Shown: positions 20,414 to 37,776, counted from the first letter of the stretch. The stretch is 64,000 nucleotides of DNA from a virus (IMGVR_UViG_3300037420_002493:1-64000), one strand, 5' to 3'. The notes: generated by a model not told the origin, from the sequence alone. Numbers and translations are program-made.

Positions 20414-22231
20414 ATGCCGATCGCAGCTTCAGCAAGAATTGACCTAATCGACTCTGACCCGAATGTTGTTTCTAACATCCAAGGTGGTCCAGAGCCACAG
20501 GATGAATGGCTGCATTTTCGCTTCTCACAGGACTATCCTCAATACCAGCGAATGCGGCGTGACCCGCATGTTCGGTCTCGCCTAGATAAACGAGTTGATG
20601 CAATCCTAGGTCGCAGTGTTTTGGTTGAGGCTCCCAAGAAGCGGGGAGCTGCAAAAGCCGCAGAGAAAGTTCAGTCCATTCTCGATAAGGTCAAGTACGA
20701 AGCGCTTTGTAAGGCGGTACTGAAGTCAGGAATGCTGATTGGATTCAGCGTGCTGCAAATCGATTTTGTGGAAGATGAGGACGACAAGACTCTACTGATT
20801 CCAAAGTGGAAGTTTGTTCCACAATCACGCTTCACCTTTGCCTATCACAAGCCGGACGATCGGGCAGTTCTAGTGGTCAATGATGATGATCTTGACCCCG
20901 CAACCGAGATTTTATTAGTTCATGGCTATGAGCTGAGGCTACTCACCAAACGTGCTCCTATCTACGGGGAGCGAGTTCCCAAGAACCGATTTCTATGTTT
21001 TACGTTTGACTCTGAAGATAGCCCGTGGGGTTTGGGACTGGGCTACTCCATTTTCCCGTGGTGGGAAGTCAAACGGTGTGCGCTCAAAGCGTGGTTGCTG
21101 CACTCCGATCGACAAGGTTCACCACCGACGATCGGAACCACCCCAGCCGACCTAGACCCCAGCCATAACGACGACCACAAGAAGATCATTGCTGACTTTG
21201 AGGGGTTTCTGAAGGCGTTATCTCCGAGCAATTGGGCATCGTTTCCTGAAGGGTTTACGGCTCAGTTATTGGAAACGATCGGGCAGAGTGGACCAGAGGT
21301 GCATCAAGCCCTCATTCGGGAAGCAGACAACCAAATCAGTAAAGTTGTGTTGGGAGAAGTCCCCTTCTCGGACAAAGACACAGGCAGTTATGCCGCAAAT
21401 GCATCTCAGGTCGAAGATAGAAGCTCAACCCTGACCGACGGGGATTGCAACCTACTGGATGAGCAACTCTATGACGGGTTGTGGTTGCCAACTTTTGAGC
21501 TAAACAGCATCGTCGATGATGCCCCGATCGTGCGTCGGGAATCATTCGCAGACACGCGCAAAGCCGCCCTTGAGAAGCAGAAGCTAGAGCATTCCAAGGC
21601 GGTAGCTGACCGAGACAAAGAACTGCAAGAACTGGGCTATCGTCGCACCGCTCAGAGTGTACTAGAAATTCATGGTGAAGGGCTGGAGTCGATTCAAACT
21701 GACACCGAGAAGCCGCCATTGGTGAGCACGATCGGGGTCGGTGGAACGCAAGCTCTATTAGGGTTGCTACAGCAAGCGTCGTCTGGAGAGTTGCCGAAAG
21801 AGAATGCGGTGGCAGCAATGGTTGCGATGTTTGGGCTTGACGAGAAAACCGCTGGCGCGATCGTGCCAGAACCGAAGCAAGAAAACTCGCAATCGTCGTC
21901 GCTCGATCAGCTTTTTGGAGGAGATACCGCGCCGACGGATACGACTAACTCAGATACCCCAGCACCTCAACCGCAGTTTACCGAGCCAGAGTCAGAGCAG
22001 GTTGAGACGGTACGGGATGAATTACCCAGCGAGTTTGCCGCAGCCGTTGCAGCGTTGAGCCGACTGGATACGATCGGGCTTGAGGAATTTGGACTGGTAT
22101 GGGATGACACGACCGAGTTTGATGAAGCGATCGCAGCGCTAAACCGAATTGAGGTAGATGGAATAGAGGTTGATATCTCCCTTGACTTTGAGGAGTGGGG
22201 GATTTGCCAACCCGATCGTAGTTACTCATGA
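20414..22231 (+). CDS. Portal protein (DUF935 / Mu gp29-like) with long acidic C-terminal extension
   Basis: DPHV.S.L.KR..AIL; IGFSV.QI; PWGLGLG..IFP.W..KR..LK.W; QISKVVLG motifs. Stop codon lies in last CRISPR repeat. Confidence 0.9.
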   Translation: MPIAASARIDLIDSDPNVVSNIQGGPEPQDEWLHFRFSQDYPQYQRMRRDPHVRSRLDKRVDAILGRSVLVEAPKKRGAAKAAEKVQSILDKVKYEALCKAVLKSGMLIGFSVLQIDFVEDEDDKTLLIPKWKFVPQSRFTFAYHKPDDRAVLVVNDDDLDPATEILLVHGYELRLLTKRAPIYGERVPKNRFLCFTFDSEDSPWGLGLGYSIFPWWEVKRCALKAWLLHSDRQGSPPTIGTTPADLDPSHNDDHKKIIADFEGFLKALSPSNWASFPEGFTAQLLETIGQSGPEVHQALIREADNQISKVVLGEVPFSDKDTGSYAANASQVEDRSSTLTDGDCNLLDEQLYDGLWLPTFELNSIVDDAPIVRRESFADTRKAALEKQKLEHSKAVADRDKELQELGYRRTAQSVLEIHGEGLESIQTDTEKPPLVSTIGVGGTQALLGLLQQASSGELPKENAVAAMVAMFGLDEKTAGAIVPEPKQENSQSSSLDQLFGGDTAPTDTTNSDTPAPQPQFTEPESEQVETVRDELPSEFAAAVAALSRLDTIGLEEFGLVWDDTTEFDEAIAALNRIEVDGIEVDISLDFEEWGICQPDRSYS

Positions 22232-22430
22232 TCGTTGCAGGAGTTGATCTTCAGTTGGGTTTTGAGGAAGCTTGAGTTGCCAACCCACTCTCAATCTTCA
22301 AGCTCGTTGCAGGTTTAGGATCAGGCACTTGCCAACCCACTCTCAATCTTCAAGCTCGTTGCAGTTGCTGCATTTCAGCAACATACCGACGCCCTTGCCA
22401 ACCCGCTCTCAGTCTTTATGATCGTTGCAG
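22204..22430 (-). CRISPR. Mini CRISPR array, 4 repeats (36-37 nt) and 3 spacers (30, 16, 36 nt)
   Basis: Repeats at 22395-22430, 22329-22364, 22277-22312, 22204-22240. Minus-strand consensus CTGCAACGA(N~17)GGGTTGGCAA; middle two identical; immediately downstream of Cas12-like gene. Confidence 0.88.
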
Positions 22431-24367
22431 GGCAACTCCCAAAGCGAAAGCTGGATGTGGTTTTGAAGCCGTTTTGACAAGCGCTTTCTTGAAGATCTTG
22501 AAGATACCCCAGTTTTGCGGGTTGCTGACTCGCTACAGGTGTCACGAAGTCTAGCTGTGTCAGGGATTTCAGAATTTACAAGCATCCCTTTTCCTCCACT
22601 TGCCTGCGTCCTTCGCAATGTATGCGGATTGCGGGCAGTTCTAGGGATCGGAGGCACTAACACAACGGTTAATCCCTGACCAGACGAATCCGGTGATCCT
22701 TTGGCTGCATCCTCAGCAGGTTCACAAACAGTCGTGACTTGTACTTGACTGTTAGGCTCTGGCATGAGCAAGCCTTGTCGAATCGCTGGGGCAATTCGCA
22801 AGGTTCTGTTTTGGACGGGCATCAACTTGCCACACGTCCCGTAAGTGACAGAGCTAAGGAAGTTTGCACTTCCCACTCCGTCTCTGTCTCCTCTCCACCC
22901 ACAACCCCCGTGTTTGGGATTGCAGTAGTAGACGCGGTTTCGCGGCTTGTGCCTGCGTCCGCATTGAGGGCACACTTGAGAGGTAAAGGCTTCACTGGCT
23001 TTCTCGGTTCCGATTCCGCCCGCCAGTTGCATCTTTTCCTCTAAATACTTCGCTTGGGTGGGCATCTCCCACATGTTGTTTCGAGACACTTGTTTGATGC
23101 GACGATTGCCCTTCTTTCTGCCCTTGGGCAATCGGTCCAAATCACCCACGTAAATTTTGCCGACCTTACGTTCAACTGCCCAATCGACAGCGGTACGAGT
23201 AATGGTGTGGTTGGCATAGTTAAGTCTGATCCGGTAATAATCAGCGGCTTTTTGCTGACCCATGTAGAGACGATAATCCCGCTTGCTTCTGCGTCTCAAG
23301 GGTTTGGTGGATTGCTGATTGAGTGCAATGAGTGAGCGTCCCTTACCATCCAGCCCTTCTCTACGACGTTGCCGAATCATTCGCCATGCGTACTTGGCAT
23401 CGCTGCCTGTGCGCTTTTTGCCTTGCCGTTGTCGCTCATTATCTTCTTCCTGCAATCTGCGATAGGTAGCCTTCTCCTCAACAGAGAGGTATTGTCGGAA
23501 TTGCCCCTTAAACACTCGCGCTCTTGCACGATTAATAGCTCGGTAGCGTCCGTCTCGCTCCCGCTTGAGAGCACAGATATCTTTGCCAGAAATAGTTGCC
23601 GTTTCTGCGGTTCCCTCTCCGTTCTGCACGGCAATGACAATGGCACGCTTCTGTCCAAAGTCTACGGCTGCCACTTGGGTGAGTTCAGGATTCGGTTCAA
23701 CGGTGTGCTTTGTGCAGAGATGAAGATAGTAATGACCACTGCGAGATTTAGAAATCTTAGCGTCACCGTCTAGCACTTTACCCTTTAGCTCTGGAAGTCG
23801 CAGCTTCAGTAGATAGGGCTTTGCACCCAGAATTAGCGTGTCTCCTTGGCGCTTGACGTGTAAGCCGCTGAAAGGAACTGGATAGTAGGACTTGAATCGT
23901 TTAGGTAGTTCAGCCTCGTGATCGCCCCGCTTGCGACGAGTAAAACATGCCTTAATAGCTGCCTCAAAGGTGCGACAAATCGCATCTGCTGACTGTGCTG
24001 GAATGCCATAATCAGGTTTCTTGCTCTTACGGACAGCGATAACCAACCGCTCGACACCCTTCTCTTTTCCTTGTTTGGCAGGCTTATTCTCCAACTGCTG
24101 AGGGTAGAGACTGTATTCCTGATTGGTGAACGTGCGAGTCAGTTCGTGTGCCCATCCAAGCTGGAATAGATTTAAGTAGCTGTTCACCTCGTAAGGTTTG
24201 CAGCTTGGGTCAGCCTCTTTTAGGCGCTTGTACTCGTTGCGTTTGTACTGGAGATGTTCAACCAACTGGTTATAGATGCGACGACTCGCTGCAAACATTC
24301 CTTCCAGCATGACTCTCTGGGTTGGAGTAGGAAAGAATTCAATTGTGAGGGTGCGAGTCGCTTCCAT
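22409..24367 (-). CDS. TnpB-derived compact Cas12-like (type V) effector
   Basis: OrfB-type N-terminus; RuvC-I VAAVDFGQK; RuvC-II IYVGDL with alternative Glu in SEAFTSQ; CPQC...C...C zinc finger; RuvC-III DRDGVGSANF; ~85-aa insertion after bridge helix; adjacent array. Confidence 0.88.
   Translation of the reverse strand: MEATRTLTIEFFPTPTQRVMLEGMFAASRRIYNQLVEHLQYKRNEYKRLKEADPSCKPYEVNSYLNLFQLGWAHELTRTFTNQEYSLYPQQLENKPAKQGKEKGVERLVIAVRKSKKPDYGIPAQSADAICRTFEAAIKACFTRRKRGDHEAELPKRFKSYYPVPFSGLHVKRQGDTLILGAKPYLLKLRLPELKGKVLDGDAKISKSRSGHYYLHLCTKHTVEPNPELTQVAAVDFGQKRAIVIAVQNGEGTAETATISGKDICALKRERDGRYRAINRARARVFKGQFRQYLSVEEKATYRRLQEEDNERQRQGKKRTGSDAKYAWRMIRQRRREGLDGKGRSLIALNQQSTKPLRRRSKRDYRLYMGQQKAADYYRIRLNYANHTITRTAVDWAVERKVGKIYVGDLDRLPKGRKKGNRRIKQVSRNNMWEMPTQAKYLEEKMQLAGGIGTEKASEAFTSQVCPQCGRRHKPRNRVYYCNPKHGGCGWRGDRDGVGSANFLSSVTYGTCGKLMPVQNRTLRIAPAIRQGLLMPEPNSQVQVTTVCEPAEDAAKGSPDSSGQGLTVVLVPPIPRTARNPHTLRRTQASGGKGMLVNSEIPDTARLRDTCSESATRKTGVSSRSSRKRLSKRLQNHIQLSLWELPCNDHKD
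22431..22510 (-). promoter_or_regulatory. Putative CRISPR leader
   Basis: Minus strand ...GCGCTTGTCAAAACGGCTTCAAAACCACATCCAGCTTTCGCTTTGGGAGTTGCC|repeat resembles cyanobacterial leaders (judged by eye). Confidence 0.45.
22515..22800 (-). ncRNA. Candidate tracrRNA/scaffold RNA (boundaries approximate)
   Basis: Minus-strand CAACCCGC (22517-22524) is complementary to repeat GCGGGTTG; lies between RuvC-III coding end and leader, as in tracr-dependent small Cas12 loci. Confidence 0.45.
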
Positions 24368-24576
24368 CACGATTCCTCAACTAACTCATCTTCATGGGCA
24401 GAGTCTTCAAACAGGTGTGGACGATCGAACTGGACAAAATACGTGAATCCAGGACGCGACCAGCATGAACCGGGAGCGGTTAACGCATAGAGCACAGCAC
24501 GAATCACACCCGCATCGTTATCGCTCGTTCTGACCCGTTGCCCAATTTGAAACCGACAGGGAGGCAGACTATACAC
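24367..24576 (-). CDS. Small SH3/KOW-like barrel protein (paralog of 58443-58664)
   Basis: F.(I/L).QRV.T...(A/S)G.I......PGFTYF(V/I).FD....FED(S/T)AHE.EL shared; TGA overlaps Cas12-like start. Confidence 0.7.
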   Translation of the reverse strand: MYSLPPCRFQIGQRVRTSDNDAGVIRAVLYALTAPGSCWSRPGFTYFVQFDRPHLFEDSAHEDELVEES

Positions 24577-24838
24577 GGTGACACTCCCCCTGTGGAATCT
24601 GGGCTAATAACTCAGGCGCATCAGCTTCTAGATGAGTAAGATTCTCGTTGACCAACCTTCTCCCAGCCCTCCAAGTCTCTTCGGTAGAGGGAAGAATCCG
24701 ATCGGTCTCAGTGTCTCCTATCTCCTGCCCAAAGGGGTCAAGAACGGCTGTTTTGTAGCCTCCGATGACTTCGATCGGGCAGATTAAATGACCGCGATAT
24801 CTAAAGCTGCAACCCCACAGATAAATGTCTTCTCTCAT
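24569..24838 (-). CDS. Hypothetical protein (paralog of 58183-58446)
   Basis: RG.LI.P(I/V)E.......VL.PFG.EIGDT shared. Confidence 0.7.
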   Translation of the reverse strand: MREDIYLWGCSFRYRGHLICPIEVIGGYKTAVLDPFGQEIGDTETDRILPSTEETWRAGRRLVNENLTHLEADAPELLAQIPQGECHRV

Positions 24839-25125
24839 GACTCAACTACTCCAATAATCCTGTCTTCGTGAATGGTTTCTACCTCATCTCCTTCGTCTCC
24901 ACTCTCAAGGTGGTAATCCCATCCAGGCTCACAGTTCTCCGCAAAGGCAATGGCAACGCGAGTAAACCGACAGCCGCAAATTCTGCCTTCAGCAATCTCG
25001 TCTTTGCTGCTCCCTCTCACTTTGTAGCGAACGGTTTGCCAAATCTCGTATTTGGGCTTTGGAGTAGGGTTACTCAGGTAGTGGTAGAGTTTTTGTTCAA
25101 GTTTGGTTAATGCTGCTTTTGCCAT
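24835..25125 (-). CDS. Small barrel-like protein (paralog of 25129-25446)
   Basis: PKY.(I/L)WQ.V.Y...GR(I/V)CG..F.RV.IAF....PGW.Y shared. Confidence 0.7.
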   Translation of the reverse strand: MAKAALTKLEQKLYHYLSNPTPKPKYEIWQTVRYKVRGSSKDEIAEGRICGCRFTRVAIAFAENCEPGWDYHLESGDEGDEVETIHEDRIIGVVES

Positions 25126-25128
25126 GTC

Positions 25129-25446
25129 TCAGTCCTCCACAATGTCAGTTTCGTAAACCTCGATAATCCTGGCATCGGCTTCGATGCGGTAATACCAGCC
25201 GGGGTCTTCGCCTCGACCTTGAAGAAAGGCAATACCGACGCGCACGAAATGGAAGCCACAGACCCGACCTTGTTTAATTTCTGGGTTGTCGTTGTCGTAA
25301 GATTTATCGTCGTAAGACGTGTATTGAACGAGTTGCCACAAGTTGTATTTGGGCTGAGTTCTGGGGTGATTCAGCAACTCTTGCAAGTGCTGCTCAAATT
25401 CCTCAACCGGATCTGGCGTCACGCCAGTATTGATAGGGGTGGTCAT
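25129..25446 (-). CDS. Small barrel-like protein (paralog of 24835-25125)
   Basis: As above; start MTTPIN. Confidence 0.7.
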   Translation of the reverse strand: MTTPINTGVTPDPVEEFEQHLQELLNHPRTQPKYNLWQLVQYTSYDDKSYDNDNPEIKQGRVCGFHFVRVGIAFLQGRGEDPGWYYRIEADARIIEVYETDIVED

Positions 25447-25460
25447 AAAAACCTCGTAAA

Positions 25461-25913
25461 TTAGCCCAACTGATAAAGACAAACTTGCTCTGCATTGCTC
25501 AGTCCCAACTCGCGCAGAATGAAGCGCGAAATCTCCGAAGGGAACTGAGTTAAAGACAGCTCAATGCGGTTGCTAAACACACCGAGAAAGTGAGCGCGTC
25601 CTTGCTGTGACACTGCTTCTTCGATCAGGGCGTCTAAATCCTCAATCACCGATTGCAGAATCTCAGACTCATCGATCGCAAAGCCCTCTTGGATGTAACT
25701 CACTAAACGCCTTGCTTTTGGAGGTAAGCCCCCATGCTTGAGAATTAGGTCGGTATCTACCTGGTCAAGACATTCTCTTGCCAGTTCTCGTGCGGCAAGT
25801 TCTGCCTCAGTGACAGTGCCAGTGGCGTATTCCTTGCCGTTGATTTTGAAGACGATTAAGCCGTAGAAGTCGTCTTGGGACTTCTGAATTGCGGTTCTAA
25901 CTGCTGTGAGCAT
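25461..25913 (-). CDS. Hypothetical protein
   Basis: 150 aa ORF in the operon leading to the Cas12-like gene. Confidence 0.65.
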   Translation of the reverse strand: MLTAVRTAIQKSQDDFYGLIVFKINGKEYATGTVTEAELAARELARECLDQVDTDLILKHGGLPPKARRLVSYIQEGFAIDESEILQSVIEDLDALIEEAVSQQGRAHFLGVFSNRIELSLTQFPSEISRFILRELGLSNAEQVCLYQLG

Positions 25914-25951
25914 GACTCGCCTAATTCCTAGTTCAGTGGTGTAGAGGGTGA

Positions 25952-25976
25952 GGCATCCTGATCGGATCAGGATGCC
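25952..25976. other. Perfect 11-bp stem-loop GGCATCCTGAT-CGG-ATCAGGATGCC
   Basis: Intergenic, between first and second genes of the minus-strand operon. Confidence 0.7.
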
Positions 25977-25984
25977 AAAGGGAG

Positions 25985-26251
25985 TTAGAAGGCTTGGCAG
26001 GTCTGAGCGAGTTCTTTCTCTTCGACGCGCCAGTCTTGACCCGTAGCAGCTTTTAAGGTTCGGTTGAGCTGGTCGTTAGCCCAGATATCTTGACGAACCA
26101 GGACATCGAAATCTTGAAAATCTAGGGTGGCTTGGCAGCTTTCAAAGCGTCTGGCTTTGACGTGGTAGCGACGAGTAACGACTCCGGTATAGGTAGCGCT
26201 CGGAGCGGTGATGAGACGGGTTTGCTTGGAGGGTGCGATCGTTGTTAGCAT
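25985..26251 (-). CDS. Hypothetical protein, first gene of the operon ending in Cas12-like gene
   Basis: 88 aa; divergent from XRE gene. Confidence 0.6.
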   Translation of the reverse strand: MLTTIAPSKQTRLITAPSATYTGVVTRRYHVKARRFESCQATLDFQDFDVLVRQDIWANDQLNRTLKAATGQDWRVEEKELAQTCQAF

Positions 26252-26418
26252 GACGTAAATCCTTTCGTGGGGTTTGTGGAGGAAGCGCTTGAAGTTGTCC
26301 AGACCCAGAGCGCTTTCTCTATGCTTTCAATATTACCTATTAAGTAATGCTTGTCAAGTAATACCTATGAAGATAAGATATATCTGTAGGCAAACGAGAT
26401 ACTTGAGAGGTGATACCT

Positions 26419-31719: not shown

Positions 31720-33045
31720 ATGTCGATCAATTTTTCAGAGCTTAAAACAACTGAAGATGTTTACATCGAAATTGGTCGCCGCTATGTCGCTGAAACGCGG
31801 CTCCAGGAAGCGATCGCGGCTGCATTAAACGGCACTTACTATGAATTTGCTGCCGCCAAGAAGAAGGCGTCAGGTAAGAAAAACTGTAATCCCGCAAAGA
31901 GTCATTTCTGCCAGACCCCAAACGGAACAGGAAGCTGTGTCTCGCTGGGCAAGCAATGCAAATTCAAGCCAAGTGGCAGCGTCAAGCAAGCCGCAGTTTA
32001 CACTGGCGAAAATGCGTCATCCGCGATCGCGGCACCTGAAAAACCTAAAAAATCAACAAAGAAAACGACCAAGAAGGCAGAAGCGGTTCCTGTAAAAGAA
32101 ATTGACACAGCAGGAATTCATGAAGATTTTGTTCCTCTTTATAAAATGGCTAATGGTTTCAAGCCTGATGAGATTAAACTGACGGATGATCAAGTCGAGG
32201 CTGCGAAGGGGTTTATGGAAGACAAATATAAAGGGACTCCAAAACAAAAGCAGATCAAAAAAGAAGGCAAAACCACAGACGAGGAGTCGCAGGCTTTGGC
32301 TAATTGGCTAGGAATCTCCTATCAAGAAATGAGTGCCAGGATCTGGAAAGCTACTTCGGTAGAAGATTCTGACGGGGGAATTCTAGCGGCGGATATTTTA
32401 GCAGCTAAAGCTTTGCATAAATTACCATCCGCTACAGCCGAACAAATCGCCAAAGGTGCTGAAAAGAAAGGGGTTTACGATTTTGATCCTACCAAGCCAT
32501 TAAAACGATGGATGAGGATTAAAGGCGAGGGTGGGGCAGAAGAGTTTATCAAAAAATACCAAGATAATATTGGGAAAGAGATCACCGAGGATAATTTTTT
32601 TGGAACTTCCCACCTTAGCGCCAATCAAATGTCGGCATTCTCAACAGGTGCAAACGTAATCTATCAGGTTGAGGCAAAACTTGATGGGACGGGGCAAGGG
32701 AAATATGTAGATCACTACAAGAAGACAATGAGCGAAGGGGAGATTCTATTCCCTCCATACTCAAAATTCAAAGTTGTCAAAGTCGTCGCGCCAAAAACAG
32801 ATCCCCTAAGCAAAGAGGAACATACTTCTATTGCTATCCATGATGCAGTCGAGGAAGCAAAATTTATGTCGTCTTTGATTGGAACCTCAATGAAGGGGCA
32901 ATACAAGTATCTCACAGGAAAAACACTACCAAAAGACTGGAAAGACCAAGTAGAGCTTGCCAAGAAAGCCAAAGAAAAATTGAAAAACTTCGATAGCCAA
33001 GATGGGCATCTTGATGCCTATACCATCCATTTACAGGAGATCTAA
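31720..33045 (+). CDS. ADP-ribosyltransferase (R-S-E clade, VIP2/Alt-like), probably head-packaged
   Basis: LKRW.RI (R), FFGTS (S), SEGEILFP (ExE); N-terminal Cys cluster; NFSE motif. Confidence 0.75.
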   Translation: MSINFSELKTTEDVYIEIGRRYVAETRLQEAIAAALNGTYYEFAAAKKKASGKKNCNPAKSHFCQTPNGTGSCVSLGKQCKFKPSGSVKQAAVYTGENASSAIAAPEKPKKSTKKTTKKAEAVPVKEIDTAGIHEDFVPLYKMANGFKPDEIKLTDDQVEAAKGFMEDKYKGTPKQKQIKKEGKTTDEESQALANWLGISYQEMSARIWKATSVEDSDGGILAADILAAKALHKLPSATAEQIAKGAEKKGVYDFDPTKPLKRWMRIKGEGGAEEFIKKYQDNIGKEITEDNFFGTSHLSANQMSAFSTGANVIYQVEAKLDGTGQGKYVDHYKKTMSEGEILFPPYSKFKVVKVVAPKTDPLSKEEHTSIAIHDAVEEAKFMSSLIGTSMKGQYKYLTGKTLPKDWKDQVELAKKAKEKLKNFDSQDGHLDAYTIHLQEI

Positions 33046-33420: not shown

Positions 33421-34158
33421 ATGCTCAAACTTCCCACCAATCCAACTGCCGATCAGATTAAAGCGATCGTCACCGCCACCATCCGTGAAACATTCGAGGA
33501 CGACGCCACTCTCACAGGCGATATCAAGCCCTATGGGAAAAGCGGATGGCAGGTTACGTACAAAAGTGGTGATATTGAGTTCATCCTCGAATGGGACGGC
33601 AACGAATTCACCAAATATCCCAAGCCTAGTAACTTCAGCGAGTTTGAGTTTGGTGCCATCATTGACAAGGTTCTGAAGTGGAACGGTCTAGATATTGGCG
33701 TTGAGTACAACCCAGGTCAAGTAAGGTTCCCAGGTCGTAAGAACTCAAAGAAACTACGATCGGGTTATGGGCATATCCGTAACCATGTGGGGGCAGACGG
33801 AGAGGCATTAGACTGCTACATCTATTCAGGGTTGCTAAATGACTCGCAATCTGGGTCTAATTTGATTTTCCGCGTCACTCAGCTTGCCGACGATGGCGAC
33901 TTCGACGAGTACAAGTTTATGCTCGGGTATGCCAGTAAGGGAGCTGCTCAGGATGCATACTTGCAGGAGATGCCCAAAGAGTTCTTCGGAGGAATTGAAG
34001 CGGTCGATCGGGAGCACATTGACGACTACCGCAAACCCTCGAACTACGCAGAATCTGAGGTTCTGTCAGATAGTGAGTGGGATGGATTAGCAGGAATTGA
34101 TGATGCGTCGATCGCGGATGCGCTAGACACGATGGCTGATCCTGGAAATCGGTCATAG
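33421..34158 (+). CDS. Protein with inorganic-pyrophosphatase-like domain (polyvalent-protein type)
   Basis: IGVEY..G.VR; YGHI....GADGEALD.YI; FRVTQ....G.FDEYK.MLGY.S...A..AYL. Confidence 0.8.
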   Translation: MLKLPTNPTADQIKAIVTATIRETFEDDATLTGDIKPYGKSGWQVTYKSGDIEFILEWDGNEFTKYPKPSNFSEFEFGAIIDKVLKWNGLDIGVEYNPGQVRFPGRKNSKKLRSGYGHIRNHVGADGEALDCYIYSGLLNDSQSGSNLIFRVTQLADDGDFDEYKFMLGYASKGAAQDAYLQEMPKEFFGGIEAVDREHIDDYRKPSNYAESEVLSDSEWDGLAGIDDASIADALDTMADPGNRS

Positions 34159-37077: not shown

Positions 37078-37776
37078 ATGAAACCCTATGAATTTCTAGT
37101 TCGGTGGAACTCAGAAGGTGTGCTGCAAGGGGCACACGTCATTTTTCAAGAGCAGTTAACGGATTCTCTTGGGAACACGACTCCTGTGATTCATCCGGCT
37201 CAACCTGTGGCGATCGGAGAAGCGCAGGGCTTTCCCTTGGAAGATGTTCTAGGGGAAGTAAATGCAGCAGCACTAAAGACTATTGATGAGTTAAAGCAGT
37301 CTCACCAAGACGAGACTGAGGCAAACACCGCGGCACATAATGCTGCAATTCAGCAGCTTCAAGACGCGCATCAGACCGAATTGCTCGTTCTAAAACAAGA
37401 GCACGAAGCGAGTTTGAGCCAGTTGCGGCAATCCTATGAGCAACAGCTTGAGCAACTCACCCAAGAACTAGAATCGTTCAAGAACCCTCCCATTAAGTGG
37501 AGTCAGTTTCGTTTAGCCATGATGGGTAATGCGGCTTACGATCGGGTGGAAGAATCGCTATCTGACAGCAAAGAGGGAACGCGGCTGCTGATTAAGTTGA
37601 CCACAGTGGTTAGCATGGACAATCCGAACCTTGTGGTGCTCCAATCGGTCTGGAATACAGCGCTTGATTTAGTGGGCTATCCAACCGCAGATGACATTGC
37701 AGAGTGGAATGCAAACGCAACGGGCACGAATGTTCCGATCCGATTCGATGACAACGGGAAAATCACAATAATCTAA
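37078..37776 (+). CDS. Hypothetical protein with coiled coil (possible fibre chaperone)
   Basis: YEFLVRW...G.LQGAH N-terminus; follows fibre gene. Confidence 0.55.
   Translation: MKPYEFLVRWNSEGVLQGAHVIFQEQLTDSLGNTTPVIHPAQPVAIGEAQGFPLEDVLGEVNAAALKTIDELKQSHQDETEANTAAHNAAIQQLQDAHQTELLVLKQEHEASLSQLRQSYEQQLEQLTQELESFKNPPIKWSQFRLAMMGNAAYDRVEESLSDSKEGTRLLIKLTTVVSMDNPNLVVLQSVWNTALDLVGYPTADDIAEWNANATGTNVPIRFDDNGKITII

Follow-up and report, generated by a model that had tools for sequence, protein, structure and literature searches.

A mini-CRISPR array beside a TnpB-like effector gene in a cyanobacterial prophage carries spacers that resemble genes of the prophage itself

A cyanobacterial prophage was found to carry a mini-CRISPR array that begins within the 3' end of a gene encoding a TnpB/Cas12f-like protein. 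The longest of its three spacers is homologous, beyond chance at both the DNA and the protein level, to an InPase-domain gene of the same prophage, and another spacer is probably a diverged copy of a segment of the neighbouring ART-domain gene. Arrays adjoin the effector gene in most related loci, and several of their spacers also come close to sequences of their own genomes. From these sequence comparisons we lean towards the view, which we consider fairly probable, that the array is aimed at related, competing phages while sparing its carrier.

Results

Anatomy of the locus

The source record is a 74-kb IMG/VR provirus, a cyanobacterial prophage, of which the window (the whole stretch of DNA that was analysed) comprises 64,000 nt. 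The spacer sequences, coordinates, translations and match counts given in the original prediction were exact on recheck, as were the 5' flanks AATT (S1), GATC (S2) and AATG (S3) of the proposed matches. The locus contains the following features.

26330-26357, minus strand: promoter-like, sigma-70-like site TTGACA-16-TAATAT, by consensus match only, upstream of the six-ORF block
24367-26251, minus strand: six small ORFs that match no Pfam family, in one block with the effector and array
22409-24370, minus strand: effector, 653 aa, with a TnpB/Cas12f-like RuvC nuclease fold (profiles, alignment, predicted fold)
22204-22430, minus strand: mini-CRISPR array of four repeats and three spacers, adjoining the effector (repeat search)
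22395-22430, minus strand: repeat R1, with the effector stop codon within it
22365-22394, minus strand: spacer S1, 30 nt, encoding GRRYVAEMQQ
22329-22364, minus strand: repeat R2, identical to R3
22313-22328, minus strand: spacer S2, 16 nt, encoding VPDPK
22277-22312, minus strand: repeat R3, identical to R2
22241-22276, minus strand: spacer S3, 36 nt, encoding LKLPQNPTEDQL
22204-22240, minus strand: repeat R4, degenerate, 37 nt, overlapping the portal stop codon at 22231
20414-22231, plus strand: Mu-type portal gene (PF06074), with its stop codon beneath R4

The minus-strand block of ORFs, effector and array is flanked by plus-strand genes, with the portal gene on one side. Both outer repeats have diverged from R2 and R3, R1 being 86% identical to them. 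The 5' half of R1 and R4 reads CTGCAACGATCAT and that of R2 and R3 reads CTGCAACGAGCTT; the inner R2-S2-R3 block may have entered an older or single-repeat array by recombination with another array. Both S1 (30 nt) and S2 (16 nt) fall below the spacer norm of 34-38 nt for the effector family described below, and S2 is probably truncated. Given its short S1 and S2 and its degenerate R1 and R4, the array may be decaying.

Contigs identical across R4-S3-R3, R3-S2-R2 and R2-S1-R1 were found in the rhizosphere metagenome of a second study (X2); an assembly artefact can therefore be dismissed, also for the two short spacers. The identical effector and array sequence was also present, at low depth, in rhizosphere and freshwater metagenomes of other studies (X2, X3), so that the lysogen or phage is found beyond the source soil sample. 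Among the metagenome contigs of the source sample and the two low-depth samples there were no variant arrays and no protospacers.

Effector protein and its family

Profile searches identified a Cas12f1-like TNB domain and an OrfB-type HTH domain in the effector. The PF07282 profile scored 42.7 bits (cut-off 26.3), and the NCBIfam guided_TnpB profile NF040570 scored 77.3 bits, which is below its cut-off of 100. The effector family comprises 24 proteins (23 homologues and the window protein) from cyanobacterial genomes (Leptolyngbya, Trichocoleus, Floridaenema) and metagenome contigs. In the family alignment (A1), residues D237, E435, E460 and D497 were invariant, as were the zinc-finger cysteines C467, C470, C483 and C490. 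The RuvC-I and RuvC-III aspartates and the zinc-finger cysteines are all present in the effector; the RuvC-II motif reads IYVGDL, with Gly instead of the canonical Glu throughout the family. The invariant E435 and E460 are candidate alternatives to that residue, and with the canonical RuvC-II Glu missing and the catalytic site rearranged, cleavage by the effector is putative.

The AlphaFold2 (AF2) model of the effector had a pLDDT of 74, and its C-terminal tail (residues 558-653) was predicted to be disordered. The top Foldseek match of the model was AsCas12f (8j3r; E = 5.5e-14, target-normalised TM 0.68), and further matches were TnpB (8h1j) and Cas12m2; the predicted fold is closest to those of Cas12f and TnpB. 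Similarity to LaTranC was weak, and a PDB sequence search with the single effector protein returned nothing useful. The effector is present in a single copy. Cas1 was absent from the 74-kb provirus, and the Y1 transposase (TnpA) was absent from the provirus record. A missing adaptation module is usual for phage-borne and V-U loci.

Eleven family loci were examined, and in nine of these the array starts at, or a few codons from, the effector stop codon. In the remaining two, a single repeat is followed directly by neighbouring DNA (L004) or there is no repeat (L022). The family arrays have repeats of 35-37 nt and 2-10 spacers, typically of 34-38 nt. Other features were observed at individual loci. 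A small Xre-type HTH or RHH gene is found immediately upstream of the effector in L016 (777-1025), L017 (5425-6129) and L024 (130-399), but none is recognisable at that position in the window. The family member of L021 (774-3898 and 10001-11857) is located in a chromosomal island, a few kb from the host cas genes for a Cas3 HD helicase, Cas6 and DevT; these genes might supply functions for adaptation or processing in trans. Spacers S3 and S4 of L016 (3534-3638) are diverged duplicates, in 71-nt units that are 85% alike; repeat-spacer units therefore duplicate in place.

Scaffold RNA and guide orientation

The tail of the effector gene contains a further conserved element.

22431-22760, minus strand: conserved structured RNA, an omegaRNA/tracr-like scaffold within the 3' tail of the effector gene (covariation)

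The fold alignment consisted of the gene tail and the first repeat from six loci. Of the 69 pairs predicted by the alignment-based fold, 37 showed compensatory changes. The fold includes an 8-bp helix between an anti-repeat, CAACCCGC (22507-22514 in plus-strand numbering), and the motif GCGGGTTG, which lies close to the 3' end of the repeat. This helix forms in each of the six sequences, with covariation at six of the eight pairs. The stretch that pairs with the anti-repeat is kept in all four repeats of the window. An RNAduplex-style energy scan for the anti-repeat was noisy, and it was the alignment-based fold that resolved the helix.

The covarying helix between anti-repeat and repeat fixes the transcribed strand and places the guide 3' of the repeat; the PAM is therefore expected 5' of the protospacer, as in TnpB and Cas12. 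It had also been argued that spacers in the sense orientation imply targeting of DNA and not of mRNA. The argument holds when the guide follows the repeat on its 3' side, an orientation that the helix confirms.

The disordered tail of the effector ends in a conserved Q-L-x-L-W motif, with W644 invariant, which lies over the most conserved RNA blocks (22431-22700). The same bases in the gene tail appear to be constrained both as RNA and as protein.

Spacer matches to resident genes

The sites in the window to which the three spacers had been assigned, and the genes in which the S1 and S3 sites lie, are as follows.

31774-31803, plus strand: resident homologue of S1 (22/30), codons 19-28 of the ART-domain gene, 5' flank GAAATT
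31720-33045, plus strand: ART-domain gene (PF03496, ADP-ribosyltransferase)
33424-33459, plus strand: resident homologue of S3 (25/36), codons 2-13 of the InPase-domain gene, directly after the ATG, 5' flank TCAATG
33421-34158, plus strand: InPase-domain gene (PF18823)
21863-21878, plus strand: claimed homologue of S2 (12/16), in the portal gene, no better than chance

At the DNA level the null comprised 300 shuffles and 300 natural k-mers per spacer, searched on both strands of the window with the array masked. At the protein level, ungapped BLOSUM62 scores were obtained from approximately 194 kb of DNA in six frames, with 20 shuffles. The best match of S3 (25/36) was uncommon in both DNA sets (p = 0.007 for shuffles, 0.027 for natural k-mers), and its peptide LKLPQNPTEDQL scored 49 against LKLPTNPTADQI, with a null maximum of 41. 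The match between S3 and the InPase-domain gene thus exceeds chance at both levels.

For S1 the outcome was more divided. Its best match (22/30) was also uncommon (p = 0.01 for shuffles, 0.02 for natural k-mers), but its protein score of 36, from GRRYVAE and three unlike residues, lay within the null (maximum 38) and was not significant alone. A second 22/30 match was found at 37340-37369 (minus strand), in a frame with no amino-acid resemblance; 22/30 by itself is not rare in 64 kb. When S1 and S3 were taken together, 12 of the 19 mismatches fell at third codon positions of the target frames (p = 0.007), both matches were sense and in frame 0 in neighbouring genes 1.6 kb apart, and the joint DNA-level p was approximately 1e-4 to 5e-4. 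The fusion of the two domains in a single protein of a relative (P0029) independently favours both matches. Further support for S1 comes from the third-codon mismatches, the short distance (1.6 kb) to the S3 site and a homologue in which GRRYVAE is retained and the following residues differ. Although marginal by match count alone, S1 is probably a diverged copy of the ART-domain gene segment.

The assignment of S2 to the portal gene failed. The best match of S2 in the window was 13/16 at another site (p = 0.34 for shuffles, 0.58 for natural k-mers), and 12/16 matches occurred at many sites. The expectation that shuffled sequences would seldom reach the observed match counts was borne out for 22/30 and 25/36 (p = 0.01 and 0.007) but not for S2, which was commonly matched.

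The resident alleles differ from the spacers at 8/30 (S1) and 11/36 (S3) positions, with the first mismatch at position 3 and position 6, respectively. A reading in which the spacers were acquired from the carrier itself and the resident targets then mutated away was rejected: 8 and 11 differences far exceed what escape needs, and non-synonymous differences at positions that are variable between homologues also counter it.

Relatives of the target genes and search for donors

Homologues of both target genes, each from a Logan assembly, were recovered from a large protein database: P0028, with 84% amino-acid identity to the ART-domain protein, and P0033, with 79% identity to the InPase-domain protein. 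The spacer sites compare as follows.

ART site: relative P0028, GRRYVAELRF; window, GRRYVAETRL; S1, GRRYVAEMQQ
InPase site: relative P0033, MKLPNNPTPAQI; window, MLKLPTNPTADQI; S3, LKLPQNPTEDQL

The spacers conserve the residues that are conserved between homologues and vary at the positions where homologues vary. At the DNA level the window was 82.5% and 78% identical to two relatives (L013 and L014, respectively), and approximately 20% of the 30- and 36-nt windows in these comparisons were no better than 22/30 or 25/36. The identities of the spacers therefore lie inside the distribution between window and relatives, and the spacers are as distant from the window as a normal relative is. In this respect S1 and S3 resemble orthologous stretches of a phage whose divergence is similar to that of the known relatives. 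The DNA of L013 and L014 matched the spacers no better than the window itself did, so that these two relatives are not the donors.

The searches for a closer match were negative throughout. There was no exact match to S1 in IMG/VR, no match to codon-degenerate patterns of S1 and S3 in IMG/VR or in JGI metagenome contigs, and no match to the 22-nt prefixes of S1 and S3 in IMG/VR. S1 with up to three mismatches was absent from 401 cyanobacterial genomes, a blastn search of the whole array against phage and plasmid collections returned zero matches, and the L018 and Floridaenema (G001) arrays had zero matches to plasmids. IMG/VR contained no relatives of the ART gene and two of the InPase gene, both of which are without the N-terminal segment, and neither an ART nor an InPase homologue was present in the related FACHB-541 phage record (G434). 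The near-perfect matches to ART, InPase and portal homologues that had been predicted were thus not seen in the collections searched. The proposed origin of the spacers in related phages agrees with their homology and divergence, but the donor phage was not found in these collections.

The target genes had been described as head genes. They do belong to the virion block, and their domains are fused to MuF/minor head proteins in relatives, but the label is loose for ART and InPase domains. The two domains are fused to each other in P0029, the ART domain is fused to a MuF/SPP1-gp7 head-morphogenesis domain in P0031, and in the window they are separate neighbours. Both domains appear to be modules of virion cargo that can be exchanged.

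Near-self spacers in sister arrays

The 49 spacers of ten arrays were compared with approximately 257 kb of flanking DNA; the Floridaenema (G001) array was also searched against its own genome and 40 related genomes. Two L017 spacers, S2 (34/36) and S4 (31/35), have matches that overlap within a single 88-aa gene of the same element, located 1.1 kb upstream of its effector. Spacer S1 of L016 matches the 5'UTR and first codons of an array-adjacent gene, with GTG for ATG and a 6-nt indel. In Floridaenema, S10 matches 33/34 on another contig of its own genome, and S3 matches 34/42 on a further contig, with five synonymous third-position changes and two non-synonymous codon changes.

In the near-identical pairs (34/36, 31/35 and 33/34), six of the seven mismatches fall at guide positions 1-7, which are PAM-proximal (p = 3.7e-4; by our own arithmetic, a conservative per-spacer figure is 0.04). 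Mismatches concentrated in the seed are as expected from selection against perfect self-matches by an active, seed-dependent effector. The suggestion in the original prediction that self-targeting would be avoided by seed mismatches is supported by this pattern.

The homologue sites are located at 5002-5063 in L017, 4142-4176 in L016, 1501-1534 in L028, 1497-1538 in L029, and 31774-31803 and 33424-33459 in the window. The protospacer homologues lie early in the gene in five of six genes (Fisher p = 0.02), and the spacers are sense in 6/7 cases; the sample is small. These trends hint at a transcription-linked function or at biased acquisition.

Candidate PAM

The 5' flanks of the seven homologues are ATT, ATG, GCA, ATG, AGT, ATC and GTA, with AT at -3/-2 in 4/7. 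These are flanks of the homologues and not of true protospacers, and the effectors concerned are 40-60% identical to each other. The ATN motif had been derived from two or three diverged flanks. Of the five flanks outside that proposal, two carry AT at -3/-2 (p = 0.03). A 5'-ATN PAM is accordingly a weak-to-moderate lead.

Discussion

Proposed function of the array

In the proposed model, the array would store the guides of a TnpB-derived, type V-like system carried by the prophage. The promoter-like site at 26357-26330 would drive expression of the whole minus-strand block (six small ORFs, effector and array) in the prophage, and the transcript of the effector-gene tail would form an omegaRNA/tracr-like scaffold, with its anti-repeat paired to the 3' part of each 36-nt repeat. 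S1 and S3 would have been captured from orthologues of the ART and InPase genes in related phages, at approximately 70-80% DNA identity. The guides would then direct the effector, possibly by way of the candidate PAM, to the DNA of related phages that superinfect the host or share it with the carrier, and the outcome would be either cleavage or silencing. The carrier's own alleles would be too mismatched for recognition (8/30 and 11/36).

Alternative explanations

It is very unlikely that S1 and S3 are unrelated to the ART and InPase genes and resemble them by chance. Coincidence is favoured by the second, apparently meaningless 22/30 match of S1 at 37340-37369, by an S1 protein score within the null and by the chance-level match of S2, but the joint DNA-level p (approximately 1e-4 to 5e-4) and the third-codon bias (p = 0.007) stand against it. 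Moreover, the two targets are neighbours and both are matched in sense orientation and in frame, variation between homologues falls at the same positions, and the same pattern recurs at 89-97% identity in the sister arrays. A different possibility is that the spacers did come from relatives but that the present copy of the array no longer works, its resemblance to self being a historical trace. We regard such a relic as unlikely. The lengths of S1 (30 nt) and S2 (16 nt) against a norm of 34-38 nt, the 86% identity of R1 to R2/R3, the degenerate R4, the lack of perfect targets in the collections searched and the missing canonical RuvC-II Glu would all fit a relic. Against this, the effector ORF is intact and keeps all the family-invariant residues, R2 is identical to R3, the stretch that pairs with the anti-repeat is found in all four repeats, and the identical array persists in the sample of a second study. 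Functional TnpB-type guides of approximately 16 nt are also known.

Two further readings assign the guides a different task. Free-standing phage homing endonucleases convert a rival's locus by cutting and repair, and the ancestral role of TnpB is homing via cleavage plus recombination. By analogy, the system could act in RNA-guided marker exclusion or homing, in which the rival's allele would be cut and repair from the carrier would convert the locus and possibly spread the effector cassette. Besides the ancestral role of TnpB, several features would suit homing: orthologous targets embedded in sequence homologous to the carrier, the presumed immunity of the carrier allele through site polymorphisms, and the distance of 0.5-1.1 kb between target and cassette in L016 and L017. 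We nevertheless judge it quite unlikely: in the window 9-11 kb separate the targets and the cassette, the short distances in L016 and L017 stem in part from how little flanking sequence was available, and there is no evidence of gene conversion tracts. Highly improbable, in our estimation, is self-regulation, in which partly complementary guides would repress the prophage's own ART and InPase genes near their 5' ends during lysogeny in a CRISPRi-like manner. The clustering of homologues near gene starts (six genes, Fisher p = 0.02), the 6/7 sense spacers, whose guides would pair with the template strand, the absent canonical RuvC-II Glu and the precedents of Cas12m-type silencing and phage TldR repressors would be consistent with repression. 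However, matches of 22/30 and 25/36 with mismatches from position 3 or 6 onward leave no seed, and the seed is where the mismatches of the sister arrays are concentrated, the reverse of the pattern required by a regulator that acts through binding. A more general proposal, which we consider unlikely, is that the whole family is an RNA-guided counterpart of homing endonucleases or silencers, aimed at the 5' ends of rivals' orthologues through template-strand pairing, with the carrier spared by a few seed polymorphisms. Rival alleles would then be converted by cut-and-repair from the carrier, or rival expression would be shut down without cutting.

Significance

If the array is indeed aimed at related phages, its interest lies mainly in what the carrier genome discloses. 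CRISPR systems acting between phages are known, and there are few cases in which the carrier genome reveals both the origin of the spacers and the escape from self. The family would provide a natural read-out of seed positions (6/7 mismatches in the first 7 nt) together with a candidate PAM. It has a compact effector and a gene-embedded scaffold, occupies a position intermediate between TnpB and Cas12, and includes a member with one guide as well as arrays of up to ten spacers. The family thus bears on the origin of type V CRISPR from transposon nucleases and on the exclusion of relatives by temperate cyanophages, and it might yield a small programmable DNA binder or cutter.

Comparison with known systems

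The effector shares a RuvC domain and a zinc finger with TnpB/omegaRNA (IS200/IS605) and with TranC, Cas12n/V-U4 and Cas12f, which are intermediates on the path from transposon to CRISPR. As in TnpB/omegaRNA systems, the scaffold overlaps the 3' end of the gene and is followed on its 3' side by the guide; in one family member (L004) there is a single guide in place of an array. In contrast to IS200/IS605 TnpB, there is no TnpA in the provirus, the gene is present in a single copy, and arrays of 2-10 spacers occur in 9/11 family loci. The window effector is also larger than TnpB, with approximately 530 folded residues plus the tail, and its guided_TnpB score is below the cut-off.

Branches of TnpB/Cas12 with a rearranged RuvC-II (RIIr) are described in the main text of Altae-Tran et al. 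2023 (PMC10691335), which does not mention cyanobacteria. As far as that text describes them, the present family is similar: it has Gly in place of the canonical RuvC-II Glu, other glutamates (E435, E460) are invariant, and it derives from TnpB and is associated with CRISPR. The latter two traits are shared with the approximately 50 independent V-U* lineages.

The V-U2 locus of cyanophage vB_AphaS-CL131 has a TnpB-like protein beside an array with 36-nt repeats and variable spacers, one of which has a mismatched match to a cyanobacterial pseudogene (PMC6293099). The window locus resembles it in being a cyanophage-type element with a TnpB-like protein, 36-nt repeats and spacers of variable length. 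A tblastn search of the effector against the phage collection returned no CL131 record, and the collection may lack CL131. The CL131 effector is either of a different lineage or too distant for detection.

Cas12r of Thermus Lalka phages is a phage-borne type V system that is aimed at rival mobile elements and includes a truncated spacer (preprint 10.64898/2026.04.20.719267). The window locus shares with the Cas12r phages a compact Cas12-type effector, a short array without adaptation genes, and truncated spacers. The spacers themselves differ: those of Cas12r match mobile elements that share the host, which are unrelated integrative elements, whereas those of the window resemble orthologues of the carrier's own genes. 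The window effector also belongs to a different, TnpB-like lineage, and its target and activity are putative. Cas-phi/Cas12j of huge phages and the mini-arrays of archaeal viruses are further virus-borne systems of conflict between elements. Phage-borne type V systems directed against competing mobile elements are thus already known; what is new here is a TnpB-like lineage with a rearranged RuvC-II, a scaffold within the effector gene, an array at the stop codon and a near-self signature in its spacers.
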